Assembly: GCF_037042905.1 (NCBI RefSeq)
Contig: NC_087251.1
Coordinates: 24,864,001-24,928,000, forward strand
DNA: 64,000 nt
Source: Lytechinus pictus
Taxonomy: Eukaryota
Reading direction: 5' to 3'
Both the position numbers and the translations under genes were made by a program. This document shows, one piece after another, positions 761 through 46,146 of this stretch (positions are counted from its first letter, which is position 1; every line of letters starts with the position of its first letter). The notes under the pieces were generated by a model. That model saw only the letters and a program-made list of their open reading frames with translations, made no database searches and was not told where the DNA came from.

Positions 761-3499
761 GTAAGAGGAACTAGAAAGTCAGAGTAGTAACGGTGCAGAC
801 ATGTCGCATGTTTGTAAACCATGATTGGATGTGATGCGATGTGTATGCATGAAGATCTACTCATTTTAAGGTTGAAAGATTTGTGGTGTTTAAATGCTTG
901 ATACGAGGGGGGGGGGGGGGGTGAAAGAGAAATAAGTGCAAAATTATTATCATGGTGGACCAAAACTGAAGAACTTGAAAATGGACTGGGTTACAAAAGT
1001 TGAGATCCAACATAATTTACACATATCATTATCAGAAATGTTTGTTAATGCCATATTAATCTCTAATGTTCTCTTTTTATTATTAAGCAGCATTAATAAT
1101 GATGTTAGGCTGATTAAGATTTATGAATGGATTTGACATTAAATTTTGTGTTTATAGTTAAATGTTTGGTGCAGTCAGCACAGTGACTATTTCATTATTT
1201 CAGCAAAGTAGCAAACGTGCATATATCCACATGATCTCAATCAAACAAGACTAGCAATAAGCTAAAACTTTCCATCTGCATTAGGGTGACAGATATTCAT
1301 AAAAAAAATTGAGTTCTGTTTTATTCATGCAAAGGGCTCAAGATGCAATCTTTCTCATAAAAGAAATTGAAGTTTGTGTAAAATGGATGAGTACTAGTAA
1401 GACAATAACTATACAAGAGGGATGTACTCTAATTGAAGAAGAAGAGTTGTGATTTTTTTTTAATGTAAAAAATGATATACATGTATGGATGATTTTCCTT
1501 TAAAAATGAAACATTACAATTAACACAGCTATAATTTTATTGCGATTCTTGGTATATTTTTCTTCAAAATATGATATGGTAGGCCTATTGATTTTTTTTC
1601 TTTGTAATTATTACAGAAATTCTTATTCTATTGTAAATTTTAGGTGCAATGATAACAGAATTCCACAAATGTATGGCTTCAGTGCCCCCCACCCCCCCAA
1701 AAAAAAGCCCTGCTTTCTGATATTTCACCAAAAAATAGTTAACCCTTGGGTAGTAAAATTATTTTATTGTTAGAGATTTACAAGTTGAAGTGAGAAAGGA
1801 CTGTTAACCCCCCCCCCAAAAAAAAATGTTATGCAGAATTGTTACCTGTAGGCCTACATGTAGTTCTATGTATACATGTACATGCTATATAAGATTATGA
1901 TGTTTGAAAATGTATCGGTACACAGTCAGAAGGTGTTAGACAAAATCAACAATTTCCTTTTCTAAGGGTGTCCAAACACTATGCAATATTGAAAGAAAGA
2001 AAATATACTGATAGCTTTACTCCAATAGCAAGGTGATGGCCAAACTATCACTTCCAAGGCACGCTGGAAGTAGATATCTTTTGGATGTTAGTTATCTTTC
2101 CAAAGTGAAGCGGAAGAAAGATAGTTTGTACATCCAGCCCACAAAGAAGTGATAGTCCATCTCGTCTCCCGGAATCAAGAGGTGATTCTTTGCTTTTATC
2201 TTAAATATAACTGAAGAATACAATATTAATAATAAAAGAATTAAATGTAAAAATTAAGGTTTCCTAATCCCTATTTAAGCATGTCTATTAAAGGTTTTGG
2301 CAAAGGATCAGTAATTTGAACTATACTAGTGTCATAGAACATTGTAATATTACAATGTAGTAGTGGTCATTGAATGCATTTCTACCTATATAGCATTTTT
2401 CTGGCACTTATGATTTAATTCAAATCTAGTGCCCTCTCTCATTATTTTTTTTATTTATATTTAAAATAGCCATTTGTGCACCAACCTAATCATATTTCAA
2501 AGCTAATGACATGATTATATCCTGAAATTTTCAGCCCATTCCCTGCTTGAGAAGGTCTTTAAAAAGAAGAATGCAGATATTCTATTTAAATGAGGTACCT
2601 GAACATATTAAATTGTGATGTAAAATCTGTAAGTTTATCCGATAAAATAAATTTCTAGTTTATATTGATATTCACAATCCACATCACAGCCATTTTGGGG
2701 CATCATACAATGTAATGGAGTAGTGGCATGCAACTTTGAGGGGGATTTACCAAAAATAAAGATAGGTTTTTGAAGAAAAAAAATCAATGGAGTCAATGCA
2801 GATAGATGCTTGTTGCTTGTGTATTGTGGAAACTGCCTTTAAATAACTCTATGTTAGCGAGGTAATTGTGATGTCTTCTTTTGCATTCATTCAAAATCAT
2901 TCATAGTGCGTGATTATGACTATGTTAGCAGAAGGGATCAGCAAAACAAAAAAGTTCAATTATTTACCATGGGCACATCCGGCCTTATTACACCAATCTA
3001 ATATCCTATCCAAATGAAATGAATTTAAACATTTTCGCAAGATACATAGCCTATAGTTAGCTTTAGATTTAGTTCCTCATCCTTAGACTTAGACCTTCTA
3101 GACCTGAAATACAATGTAGGTGTGCTGACTGCTGCACTAACACTACTAGTATATGTTAGATCTCTTGCCTAGATAGACACTCAGGTTGTGTTCAATGTCG
3201 GTTCCCAAATTTAAATGGCAACATGAATCATAATTGAAAACGTGATTACAAAACATGGATATAATGACAATGTCCTCCATTCCGCCGTAAAAGTAAACAT
3301 CTTTCAAAACACGATTCAGAGGAAAATTCAAACGTCGAAAAAGATGCATTTGTAAATGCGATCATCTCGGATTTTACAACCTTCAGCATCACAAATGCGA
3401 CATTGAACACAATTGAGTTTTGAAACGTCATGCTCTCTCAAAGAAGCCTGCACAAGCAGGTGCCAGAATTGACCTTTCTTGTCATTGGTCAAACTGCAC

Positions 3500-43272: not shown

Positions 43273-43532
43273 CACTAGCGTACCTACGGGGGGGGGGGGG
43301 GGGGGGGGCAGACTGCAGACTGCTCCCCCCCCTGACGAGTCACAACCCATGCAAACGAAATATCCCTGACCCCCTGAGTCTTGAAGACCTTTTTTTTTTT
43401 GCTTGTACAATTTTTTTCTGGTACGAAATCCTTTATTTGTGGTTGAAGACCTTTTTTGTTTTGTTTTTTGCTTGTCAAATTTTTTGGCGGACGAATTTGC
43501 CCCCCCTGTGGAAAATCCTAGGTATGCCACTG
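43273..43532. mobile_element. hAT-like MITE
   Basis: CACTAGCGTACCTA / TAGGTATGCCACTG; TSD GAGGGATC/GAGGGACC; related to 54217..54425 and 62520..62727. Confidence 0.75.
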
Positions 43533-43702: not shown

Positions 43703-43832
43703 CTAAAAACAAAAAACAAAAAATAAATCAAACCTACCCCACGAGACACTCTTTATTGATAAACTTCTTGCTATAGGACTTTACTAAATGAAATCACTAC
43801 AGGTAAAGACATGGAAGCAATATTTGAAATTA

Positions 43833-46146
43833 TATACCTCTCTTTAAGAATGTCGAATAATCCGTTCCTCTGATTGGTCAAAACTGAGGTCATGTATACG
43901 ACCATGCCTTCAAAACAACAAATTAAGGTGGTAACCAAGGGCAACGGGCATAGTTCACAAGATTTCTGCCCGTTGCCCCCTGATCCGCCCCTTAACAACG
44001 GGCATGGTTAAAATTTGGTGAAATTCGCATTTGTTTACGTGCAAAAATTGCTCTGTGCGATGATTGCGGATACCATAATTTCACCGCGATTCGTGGTCGA
44101 TAAATTCAGACAGCTCGCGCGTTCGACGCGCATACGCGCTGCGCAGACGATCATTTCGCCGTAAATTATCGATTAAGCGGATCGCTAATTTGCAGACTAG
44201 TACTAGGCCCAGGTCTGTCCCTACGTTTCATCTCTTTTTGTTCTAAAAACGCATTTTTGGTGCATGATGGCAGAAGCTAATCTTCCAAGATTTGAACTCC
44301 TTGATGATGATCAATTAAAGGATTTAATGGACTCTGCGGACAGTAAGAACACTAAATGTGCAGTTAAGTATGCCTTGAAAATTTTCGAAGATTACTTGTT
44401 GCAAATCAACTCAGACCTTAGTAACGTAGACAAGCTGTCTAACTCTGAACTGGACCGCGTTTTGCAGAAGTTTTATGCTGGTGCTAGACAGAAGAACGGT
44501 TCGCTTTACAGCAAGAAATCAATGTTATCCATCAGATTTGGACTTCAACGTCATTTCCTTAGTTCGAAGAATGTAGACATTATCAAGCACGATGATTTTG
44601 CCAATTCAGCGAGAGTTTTCAAGTGTTTCTCGGCAACTCTCAAACAGAAGGGCAAGGGATTTGTGAAACACAAGCCAGCCATTTCACCTGAAGACATGGA
44701 GAAGATTCAACGTTCACTTGATTTGGATGATCCACAAGGTCTTCAAGATAAGGTATTTATTGATGTGATGTTGCATTTTTGCAACCGTGGCAGAGAGAAT
44801 TTGCGAGAAATGACAGTTGACAGTTTTGAAATTTGCGAAGAAGAAGGAAAGTGTTCCTACATTAGTTTCAAAGATACACTCACTAAAAACAATCGTGAAG
44901 ACAAACTAGAAAAAAGCCAAGGGGGAATCATTGCTCCAACAAATGGATCACGTTGTCCTGTTGCCTCATTCCTTCACTACAAAAGTAAACTGAACCCACA
45001 ATGTAAATGGTTCTGGCAAAGACCAAAACCTAAGCATGATCTTGATCCAGCTTCATTTGGTCCATGGTACTGTAATGCTCCCCTGGGGAAGAACACCATC
45101 GGAGATAAGATGAAAACGATTTCATCTCGTGCTGGAACCAAAGTCTACACCAACCATTGTTTGAGGGCTACCAGTATCAGCACCCTTCAAAATGCAGGAT
45201 TCCGAGATAGGGAGATCATGAGTGTGTCAGGTCATCGATCAGAAGGGAGTCTCAAACACTATGCTAGTACAAGCAGTGATACAAAAGAGAACATGAGCCG
45301 TGCTATCGCGACAGCTGTTGATCAAAATAAATCAGCACCAGCCGGACCTGGGCCTAGTACTAGATCTACAACAGAAATCCCGGAATCTTGTCTGACTTCT
45401 GGTGCAAAAAGTGAGAGCCAGGAACTCCGTGAATTGCAGCAAATACTGGACGACTTCACAAATAACAGAGAAGTCCTTGCACAACCAGCTCGGCCAACAT
45501 GCAATATCACAACGAATAGTCATGCTCATCTGTCAAGCCATCAAGTCCAAGCCCCAAACTTCAACATCCAAAACTGTGTTGTAAACATCTACAATAAATA
45601 ACAATCTCTCGCCTTCGGTGTATATATGTTTGAAGTTCAACAAGTTTTCATTGAAAATGTTACTGTTCGCGTGTTTGAAAAGAAAACTGGATCTTTGACT
45701 TTGTAACTTTGGTGTTAAGGAGTTCTACTTTAATAAAAGACTACATTTTGGATTGAAATTGAGTTTTAAAGTTAGTCGCCTGGATAAACTTTTCAAGGTC
45801 TACTATTGTTAAACTGTTTTCTTCTAAATATGACCCCCAACGTAAGAGTAATGAGATGACAGGATCACATGACATTGACAATGACAGGTAAGGCATTTCC
45901 TTTTTTTTTGTATAGATCTAGGCCTAATTCAAATATTATGCTTAAGATAAGTTAAACTTAATTCGGCATATAAAACATATATTGACTGCTTTAATATTCG
46001 AGGCATGGTTATTTCCATAGGCTCTCGGGTACCTACAACTTGCTATGACCCCGCGGCGCAAGCGCCTTGGGGTCATAGCAAGTTGTGAGGTCCCCTCGAG
46101 CCTATGGAAATAACCATGCCTCTCATCGCAGTCAATATATCTATAC
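43833..46146 (+). mobile_element. Full-length Crypton-like DNA transposon in a RING-gene intron, antisense to the host
   Basis: Single YR ORF, no long TIR; TATAC direct repeat at 43833..43837 and 46142..46146; CTGATTGG box near the left end; long 3' hairpin 45977..46140. Confidence 0.8.
44264..45601 (+). CDS. Crypton-type tyrosine recombinase (DUF3504/CryptonA-like), 445 aa, intronless
   Basis: Catalytic R175 (RGRE), K208 (TKN), H298-x-x-R301 (TNHCLRAT), H324 (SGHRS), Y333; family motifs SKNT, CPV, FWQRP, WY...PLGKNT; AATAAA at 45732. Confidence 0.92.
   Translation: MMAEANLPRFELLDDDQLKDLMDSADSKNTKCAVKYALKIFEDYLLQINSDLSNVDKLSNSELDRVLQKFYAGARQKNGSLYSKKSMLSIRFGLQRHFLSSKNVDIIKHDDFANSARVFKCFSATLKQKGKGFVKHKPAISPEDMEKIQRSLDLDDPQGLQDKVFIDVMLHFCNRGRENLREMTVDSFEICEEEGKCSYISFKDTLTKNNREDKLEKSQGGIIAPTNGSRCPVASFLHYKSKLNPQCKWFWQRPKPKHDLDPASFGPWYCNAPLGKNTIGDKMKTISSRAGTKVYTNHCLRATSISTLQNAGFRDREIMSVSGHRSEGSLKHYASTSSDTKENMSRAIATAVDQNKSAPAGPGPSTRSTTEIPESCLTSGAKSESQELRELQQILDDFTNNREVLAQPARPTCNITTNSHAHLSSHQVQAPNFNIQNCVVNIYNK

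Follow-up and report, generated by a model that had tools for sequence, protein, structure and literature searches.

How does a transposon with a tyrosine recombinase gene and no reverse transcriptase (RT) bring its two ends together? The question is raised by a Crypton of 2316 bp in the genome of Lytechinus pictus, inside a 64,000-nucleotide (nt) stretch (contig NC_087251.1, positions 24,864,001 to 24,928,000, forward strand) that we call the window and in whose coordinates positions are given. A first-pass annotation had singled out a segment near the right end of this element, 45959-45989, as an inverted copy of the junction that would form if the ends were joined in a circle; its coordinates and letters (TAATTCGGCAT-ATAAAAC-ATATATTGACTGC) proved exact. 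Here we find that an internal region complementary to both termini lies beside the right end in Crypton families of this genome, clearly in 10 of 11 and weakly in the family of the window; that it co-varies with the termini of each family; and that the elements insert at one point without target duplication. We put at about even the chances that the flagged segment makes up the 5′ half of a foldable, composite attachment site, comparable to integron attC or to DIRS elements' internal complementary region (ICR), through which an animal Crypton would undergo a single exchange.

A Crypton with one gene

The sole long open reading frame (ORF) of the element occupies 44264-45601, in keeping with the annotation's description of an element without RT. 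Its product matches Pfam Phage_integrase above threshold (29.7 bits; cut-off 27.1) and DUF3504 and QRICH1 below it (25.0 bits against a cut-off of 29.7, and 24.6 against 30.8). The motifs RGRENLR, HCLRAT and SGHRSEGSLKHY, which we take to be the catalytic R-H-R-Y set of a tyrosine recombinase, are intact in the window ORF, and they align and are conserved across sister families. In the nearest Atlas clusters, DUF3504 is found in 45-77% of members together with Phage_integrase, and the commonest taxa are Mollusca and Cnidaria. No inverted or direct repeat links the two ends, and so we see no terminal inverted repeats (TIRs) and no long terminal repeats (LTRs); the palindrome described below is wholly 3′. 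The traits of DIRS-like elements (RT and RNase H genes, inverted or split terminal repeats) are absent from the window element. Because it combines a recombinase ORF with intact motifs, DUF3504 and Phage_integrase neighbours, no RT and no TIR, the element is, judged by its sequence, an animal-type (CryptonA-type) Crypton.

All Crypton families, copies and empty sites compared here come from one eukaryotic genome of 811 Mb. It holds a 98%-identical full copy of the element (aligned over query 131-2449), one internally deleted copy and older fragments. A gene-less, non-autonomous derivative of about 1.2 kb shares the left 305 bp at 86-90% identity and the right 190 bp at 73-78% (at least 35 left-end and at least 14 right-end matches), and its conserved right block starts exactly at 45959, the first base of the flagged segment. 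Contigs from three other organisms stop at 43829/43830 and 46148 and retain 45941/2-46145/9 as a block.

The right part is the foot of a terminal hairpin

The annotation had paired the right part of the segment with the right terminus at 13 of 13 bases. This pairing (R′ with R; Table 1) is exact and far beyond chance: 45977-45989 is the perfect reverse complement of 46128-46140 (inverted pair I14). It is not free-standing: the 3′ end of the Crypton carries an imperfect palindrome of 164 nt (45977-46140), and this pairing is its outermost stem. Further inside, two more pairs of arms match over 35 nt at 91% (I1) and over 25 nt at 92% (I3). Folded as DNA, 45959-46146 gives -67.9 kcal/mol (z = -16.3) for the + strand and -71.4 kcal/mol (z = -16.5) for the - strand; of 200 shuffles, none folds as well for either strand. 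The final CTATA is present at the right end of 19 of 20 family-A copies, family A being that of the window.

The hairpin is conserved as a structure. A protein search of the genome gave 99 matches, from which 30 loci were fetched and sorted into families by all-against-all comparison; the recombinases of the sister families are 36-47% identical to that of the window. Every family that could be followed carries a terminal palindrome. Families A, B, D, E and F each have a reverse-strand self-match of 160-200 nt at the extreme 3′ end, with folds of -57 to -83 kcal/mol. Six of nine further loci that were screened carry a terminal palindrome (-51 to -114 kcal/mol), and two further hairpin ends (family G and one F-like) were seen as neighbours of other elements. 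Counted as misses are L058 and L059, with no large palindrome within the fetched flanks, and L036, a second family C copy whose 3′ part is rearranged. Across families the terminal hairpins span 130-230 nt, and their arm sequences are quite different while the pairing is kept. Double changes are seen at 8 of 53 predicted pairs within family A. The arms of the gene-less family, ATATATGGACTGC and GCAGTCCATATAT, differ from those of the window by such a double change (T>G in one arm, A>C in the other), and this outer pair is perfect in 16 of 18 copies and has one mismatch in 2. The bottom strand folds slightly better in 11 of 13 hairpins, which is the sole strand signal.

A long stable stem with compensatory changes would also suit RNA. 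The hairpin could lie in the 3′ untranslated region (UTR) or in a read-through transcript, where it might terminate transcription, give rise to small RNAs for self-silencing or serve as a precursor resembling that of a microRNA (miRNA). Searches of Rfam gave nothing near a gathering score, and the weak miRNA-model matches that could be cited for such a role are sub-threshold (26.3 bits against a gathering score of 69). We consider a role in RNA very improbable: it leaves the complementarity to the left terminus unexplained, since that terminus would be off the transcript unless the ends were joined; the stem has no G-U bias; AATAAA words lie upstream (~45594 and ~45732); and the non-coding derivative family retains the whole block as its end.

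One copy has an altered hairpin. Compared with L053 and L052, L041 (oriented ~3017-3185) carries the apical part of its family-E hairpin in inverted (flip/flop) orientation, with a reverse-strand match of 92.8% compared with 75% for ordinary self-matches. Its right basal arm is the perfect complement of the left arm, at a place where other family-E copies have an asymmetric loop. The flip is absent from the 31 other copies compared.

The internal copy of the left end co-varies with the terminus

For the left part of the segment, the annotation had proposed pairing at 9 of 11 bases with ATGTCGAATAA (43850-43860). The letters do match, but at chance level: 578 of 5000 shuffles reach the score when the 31 nt 5′ of the arm are compared with the first 45 nt of the element, as do 10% of 2000 random 45-nt pieces of the window. 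The block is constant between both A-type families (TAATTCGG... facing ...GTCGAATAA), so no test of co-variation is possible from it; in the gene-less family the internal partner of 43850-43860 gains 2 nt and the terminus itself is unchanged. The counterpart of the sister-family copies is a shorter match. L′ (GGCATATAA) is complementary at 8 of 9 positions to L, the extreme left terminus, and lies, as in those families, 0-5 nt from the base of the hairpin. In a position-restricted test 26 of 5000 shuffles reach this value, and the position-locked match is nominally significant. In the gene-less family TTATGAACC faces TTATAAACC, with one position altered on both sides relative to the window.

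In families B, D and E, the left terminus of the family recurs as its reverse complement immediately 5′ of the hairpin (15/15, 13/13 and 22/22, respectively), and in family F the complementarity is about 24/29 with one gap. When five families were compared with 60-nt left-end windows, the diagonal scores were 15 for B, 13 for D, 22 for E and 19 for F, and off-diagonal scores were at most 10; of 2000 shuffles, 0, 2, 0 and 0 reached the diagonal scores of B, D, E and F, respectively. For 10 of 11 families, the match that scores highest within the family's own 1.5 kb of upstream DNA (11-28 nt) begins 0-5 nt from the hairpin base. It falls at most 5 nt from the left end mapped independently by copy alignment in all five multi-copy families, and in four of five single-copy families the left end that it predicts places a CCAAT box at the usual 26-35 nt. 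The longest shared stretches beyond the arm reach 22 to 28 nt (families E and J). The annotation had named co-variation of the internal segment with each family's termini as the check on its idea, and in the sister families of this genome we find it, both in the diagonal of the matrix and in the position of the match in 10 of 11 families. Its central claim, an internal inverted copy of the circle junction, holds as a design of the families, although in the window itself L′ is short.

Could the resemblance be chance, or the relic of an ancient inverted duplication of the junction region that now has no role? The 9/11 match is at chance level, and AT-rich palindromic sequence inflates short matches, as in the 1.5-kb matrix. 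We give this explanation hardly any credence, because the plan is kept across families with 36-47% protein identity and different arm sequences, among which an unselected duplicate would have decayed, and because the match coincides with the mapped left ends in 5 of 5 families.

The annotation had also drawn a parallel to DIRS-1, and it is apt. The ICR of DIRS-1 comprises 88 nt, of which 33 nt complementary to the left end are followed by 55 nt complementary to the right end, and is essential for retrotransposition (Cappello et al. 1985, as given in the accessible part of Malicki et al. 2020, PMC7192593). Its order (L′ then R′) and its position beside the right terminal structure, as described in the same part of that source, are those of the Crypton segment, and both segments equal the circle junction read backwards. 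The internal copy of a Crypton might therefore be a template of the type proposed for DIRS-1, which in each cycle would bring the ends together by annealing and restore them by DNA synthesis, possibly on cDNA through an RT supplied in trans. The right basal arm of L041 is what fold-back copying would yield. We nevertheless think such templating improbable. The element lacks an RT. All copies of a family (5 of F, 18 of the gene-less A family) have inherited its mismatches between L′ and L, and so the ends are not recopied from the internal segment in each cycle. The internal copy does not supply a template for the spacer at the joint either: in every family that spacer measures 3-5 nt with ATA in the joined ends, compared with 1-3 nt in the internal copy.

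Insertion at one point in an AT-rich dyad

Two empty sites are available, both in paralogues of one target. An A-type copy (L005) lies in a repeat of which L034 and L046 are unfilled copies; the empty site reads ...GGTATATCCAAAA/ATATATCGAGG... and the filled site ...CCAAAA/TTATATACC...ATCTATA/ATATATCG... (a slash marks the boundary). No target sequence is duplicated, and both TATA words derive from the element. This sets the ends of the element at TTATA... and ...CTATA, to within 1 nt. An F-type copy (L060), compared with the same two repeats, has entered this palindromic site the other way round, at the opposite edge of its 6-bp spacer. At neither empty site is there a target-derived repeat, and hence none of the 4-6 bp terminal direct repeats expected of a Crypton as its crossover substrate. 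The annotation had joined the ends at TATAC; the two empty sites contradict a crossover at a TATA or TATAC word shared by the ends, as the TATA words are element-derived and no target bases are duplicated.

The target of L005 and L060 is a 46-bp near-perfect palindrome, ...GACGTCAGACCTCGATATA-TTTTTGG-ATATACCGAGGTCTGACGTC... (L034 ~1320-1365, also L046 ~680-725). It sits in the 5′ region of H/G-type Cryptons and was hit independently by two Crypton families, at both edges of its centre.

We profiled 20 family-A junction pairs, leaving out L016, in which an indel had shifted the projected end. To the left of the element, the target has AATA at -11 to -8 (A 15, A 14, T 20 and A 19 of 20), six free bases and then A at -1 (18 of 20). 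To the right, a free base (A 8, C 9, T 3) is followed by T, A and T (19, 19 and 15 of 20). The consensus AATA-N6-A/N-TAT is an AT-rich dyad. In all 17 informative insertions, the left junction has the element's T and the right junction the target's base, and in all 20 copies a variable hexamer stands on the left while the CTATA on the right is constant. Both outcomes would be expected from two staggered exchanges across unlike spacers; the one-sided pattern in 17 of 17 and 20 of 20 thus indicates a single exchange point, and insertion is at one point without target duplication. A heteroduplex overlap of the Tn916 type is ruled out by the arrangement of left hexamer and right CTATA in the 20 copies.

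Cryptons are also found head to tail. Of 39 left ends, 5 abut the right end of another Crypton, and three of these neighbours belong to a different family (Table 1). The natural tandem joint reads CTATA/TTATAAACC. The right boundary of family G, GTTTA/, is variously adjoined by flanking DNA, an E element or a D element.

Other junctions were less regular or gave no comparison. A gene-less copy (L012; ~1805-1815 and 595-604) has TATGATGTA on both sides, resembling a 9-bp duplication; its flank is unique in the genome, which provides no empty site for comparison, and a flanking repeat of this type is absent from the other 19 family-A copies. The left flank of the window's element is likewise unique beside the insertion, and no empty site was found for it. 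For family C, with the right flank inside a D element and the left flank a microsatellite, the comparison was uninformative.

Table 1 Features of the window's Crypton and positions of head-to-tail joints
Feature	Position	Strand	Remarks
Whole Crypton element	43830..46145	+	TTATATACC ... ATATATCTATA; ends from copy alignment, contig ends and empty-site comparison
L arm TTATATACC, extreme left terminus	43830..43838	+	Partner of internal copy
Left-terminus block of the first-pass annotation, ATGTCGAATAA	43850..43860	+	9/11 with 45959-45969, chance level
ATTGG (inverted CCAAT box)	43873..43877	+	Probably part of the promoter
Tyrosine recombinase ORF, 445 aa	44264..45601	+	Pfam Phage_integrase, conserved motifs
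L′, internal inverted copy GGCATATAA	45965..45973	+	Same place as sister-family copies, 0-5 nt from hairpin base
Short spacer AAC in internal copy	45974..45976	+	3 nt, compared with 5-nt CTATA in joined ends
R′ arm ATATATTGACTGC	45977..45989	+	Outer 5′ stem of terminal hairpin
Inner imperfect palindrome	45990..46127	.	Asymmetric internal loop near base
R arm GCAGTCAATATAT	46128..46140	+	Partner of R′
CTATA, last element bases	46141..46145	+	Predicted unpaired in joined form, with the joint at its 3′ edge
Head-to-tail joints (R arm - TATA - L arm)	L054 ~1186; L055 ~1235; L041 ~1139; L046 ~1140; L061 1415/1416 (tandem)

A model for the joined ends

Along the + strand, the 3′ end has in order L′, short spacer, R′, long imperfect palindrome, R and (C/G)TATA, and the left end begins with L. 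In the model that we propose, joining the ends, in a circle or in a head-to-tail tandem, would bring R-TATA-L opposite L′-R′. The terminal hairpin would lengthen into the stem so formed, with the R and L boxes flanking a small unpaired TATA loop that carries the joint at the 3′ edge of TATA. Because the spacer of the joined ends is longer than the internal spacer, the joint would come to lie at the edge of this loop in the paired form. Predicted folds of the joined ends extend the stem past the joint in six of seven representatives, and the minimum-energy fold for the window pairs both left blocks, 43830-43838 and 43850-43860. The element's tyrosine recombinase would read the folded form, as a single strand or as an extruded cruciform, and exchange it at one point with an AT-rich dyad target, AATA-N6-A/N-TAT; replication or repair would complete the event. 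In the integrated state, L′-R′ may act as a splint that aligns the two distant ends on one strand for excision.

We infer from the sequence comparisons that the site folds in vivo, that single strands are exchanged, which strand is chosen and that the internal segment serves as a splint. If our reading of the target dyad is right, the exchange would take place at the spacer's 3′ edge on the + strand. Tyrosine recombinases are generally known to cut the bottom strand there, and we tentatively assign the exchange to that strand.

The annotation had offered two roles for the internal segment, a splint or a second recombinase-binding site, and our preference for a splint is a matter of interpretation. 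As a binding site, L′-R′ would be recognized in duplex DNA as an inverted copy about 140 bp away, with an accessory function in synapsis, directionality or expression control, and its pairing would be irrelevant. Both copies would then follow the specificity of each family's recombinase, so that family-specific co-variation is predicted here too, and the differing spacer would make the internal copy non-catalytic, which fits the rarity of inversion (one flip, in L041, and 0 of 31 others). We regard a duplex binding site as unlikely, if the most plausible of the alternatives considered. The stretches shared beyond the arm in families E and J, at 22-28 nt, exceed the 11-13-bp sites of tyrosine recombinases cited in the accessible text of Kojima and Jurka 2011 (PMC3212892). 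Moreover, the 120-140 nt between the copies are kept as a palindrome of family-specific sequence, which a duplex site does not require, and insertion at one point is not predicted by it. Given the integron- and CTX-like design together with the one-point insertions, a folded attachment site with a single exchange is the best-supported reading.

Several observations weigh against a folded site. The window's family is weak for L′, and its best score in both matrices is an unrelated match. In the AT-rich 1.5-kb matrix, a family's own upstream region was the top column in only 5 of 11 rows, with 1 tie, so that it is position rather than score that supports the case. In the gene-less family, which has been very successful, the minimum-energy fold makes no use of L′ and L. 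Mismatches in the stem show no wobble bias for either strand (12 of G-T type, 18 of A-C type and 90 others). The empty site of L060 leaves 4 nt of microhomology (ATAT), so that a very short overlap is possible there, and four contig sets yielded ends of the element and non-autonomous forms but no joint from the right end back to the left end. Finally, we know of nothing in eukaryotes that would supply single strands to a transposon lacking Rep and RT.

Relation to known systems

Integron integrases recombine attC sites in their folded form, and the attC box names and part of the comparison that follows are general knowledge. In the accessible parts of the integron literature (PMC2727003, PMC5027507, PMC4792948), attC is an imperfect palindrome at the 3′ end of a small mobile unit, its structure kept and its sequence free. 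Its inner core, which is inverted, pairs with a second core that becomes complete only once the two unit ends have been joined, and the central part is unpaired. The Crypton 3′ end has the same structural properties: an imperfect palindrome of free sequence, with an inner core that pairs with a core from both unit ends. Cassettes, as far as these sources describe them, also share with Cryptons a tyrosine recombinase and head-to-tail arrays and, on our reading of Cryptons, asymmetric exchange and replicative resolution. The two differ in that a Crypton is a eukaryotic nuclear element with its own recombinase gene and has neither platform nor attI, that it targets dispersed AT-rich dyads, and that its joint lies between two boxes and not inside the outer box. 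At attC, next to attI, the integron integrase acts on the folded bottom strand; for Cryptons the use of a single strand is our suggestion, for which insertion at one point and the slightly better folding of the bottom strand are indirect signs.

The folded attP(+) of CTX phage is reportedly used by XerC/XerD (Val et al. 2005). Two inverted site copies about 100 nt apart fold there into a hairpin with an unpaired centre (PMC3442271, accessible part). In the integrated phage, on the same partial account, one copy is opened and the other stands whole just inside one end, as in the Crypton; a single strand-pair exchange takes place in CTX and would do so, on our reading, in Cryptons. The phage differs from a Crypton in having a natural single-stranded genome and in using host recombinases and the host dif site, so far as that account goes. 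A more distant parallel, generally known, is the 'peel and paste' movement of IS200/IS605, with subterminal hairpins, cleavage outside the stem, no target duplication and a one-strand mechanism of the kind proposed here. Those elements are bacterial, and their enzyme is an HUH nuclease and not a tyrosine recombinase.

Differences from DIRS-1 are as plain as the likeness noted above. The Crypton lacks RT, RNase H and inverted LTRs; its segment measures 25-45 nt compared with 88 nt, and the partner of R′ is the foot of a long hairpin. The internal spacer differs from that of the joined ends, and the inherited mismatches speak against re-templating of the ends.

With CryptonA elements, as described in the accessible parts of Kojima and Jurka 2011 and of the 2026 Glomhopper paper on fungal CryptonA (PMC13465315), the window's element shares one ORF without introns, encoding a tyrosine recombinase that has the catalytic residues and may be DUF3504-like, the lack of RT and TIRs, and non-autonomous derivatives with both ends in common. 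Unlike the CryptonA elements of these accounts, those studied here carry a 130-230-nt terminal hairpin together with an inner copy of their joined ends, and they lack a direct repeat derived from the target. Neither 'hairpin' nor 'palindrom' occurs in the accessible text of Kojima and Jurka. The available part of the Glomhopper paper reports that no repeats were found and mentions an ICR only for DIRS, and animal Cryptons are described without any terminal repeats in the accessible papers. We found no Crypton title or abstract describing a hairpin with an internal copy of the junction; subscription journals and Repbase entries lie outside this search.

Further features of the element

Ten of 12 family representatives have an ATTGG or CCAAT word 26-46 nt inside the left end, and in 6 of 12 a CACGTG-like box follows about 15 nt further inside. 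Together these boxes are probably a promoter. The 5′ untranslated part of the window's element contains a small palindrome (43939-43978; 12-nt arms at 100%, 16-nt loop), and beside it lies a 14-nt direct repeat at 43942 and 43996.

The recombinase ends in a conserved C-terminal tail, F-N/H-I/F ... C-x-V-N-I/F-Y-N-K (window 45557-45598; families A, B, C, D and F), that comes after a low-complexity linker. Most of the ORF is bracketed by a perfect 19-nt inverted repeat (CTAGTACTAGGCCCAGGTC) at 44197-44215 and 45345-45363. The repeat belongs to a set of CTAG-rich words (TAGGCC, TAGACC, TAGATC). Their enrichment is seen in families A, B, D, I, K and L and is greatest in the gene-less family (20 hits compared with 1.4 expected), and they often cluster 40-100 nt 5′ of the hairpin.

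At 45887-45915 of the window, 90 nt 5′ of the hairpin, a GGTAAG that resembles a 5′ splice site precedes a run of pyrimidines and a TAG. Of 11 autonomous families, 7 have GGTAAG in the 200 nt 5′ of the hairpin, far above the expectation for a hexamer. Outside the Crypton and unrelated to it, 43430-43532 (103 nt) is a very abundant short repeat with 2206 candidates at first look, at 89-97% identity.

Implications for Crypton movement

The mode of Crypton movement is not known to have been worked out, and a conserved, co-varying cis architecture provides a first concrete model. The model combines the hairpin at the terminus with the inner copy of the joined ends, a TATA loop that would hold the joint and one-point insertion into a dyad target, and it supplies exact predicted substrates that can be synthesized and tested. 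The architecture also offers annotators a structural signature for Crypton ends and for abundant gene-less derivatives, and it connects eukaryotic Cryptons, the ICR of DIRS elements and the folded attC and attP sites of bacteria, which have so far been treated apart.

We suggest, with somewhat less than even confidence, that animal Cryptons as a group move by a single-strand pathway akin to those of integrons and CTX: a strand would fold on its internal junction copy, and this strand alone would be cut and rejoined by the tyrosine recombinase, to be peeled out with the help of the splint and pasted in at the edge of an AT-rich dyad's spacer, with replication completing the event. If true, this would be the first case of folded-strand transposition by a tyrosine recombinase in eukaryotes, and the internal complementary region of DIRS elements would be an inheritance from Crypton ancestors that had no RT.

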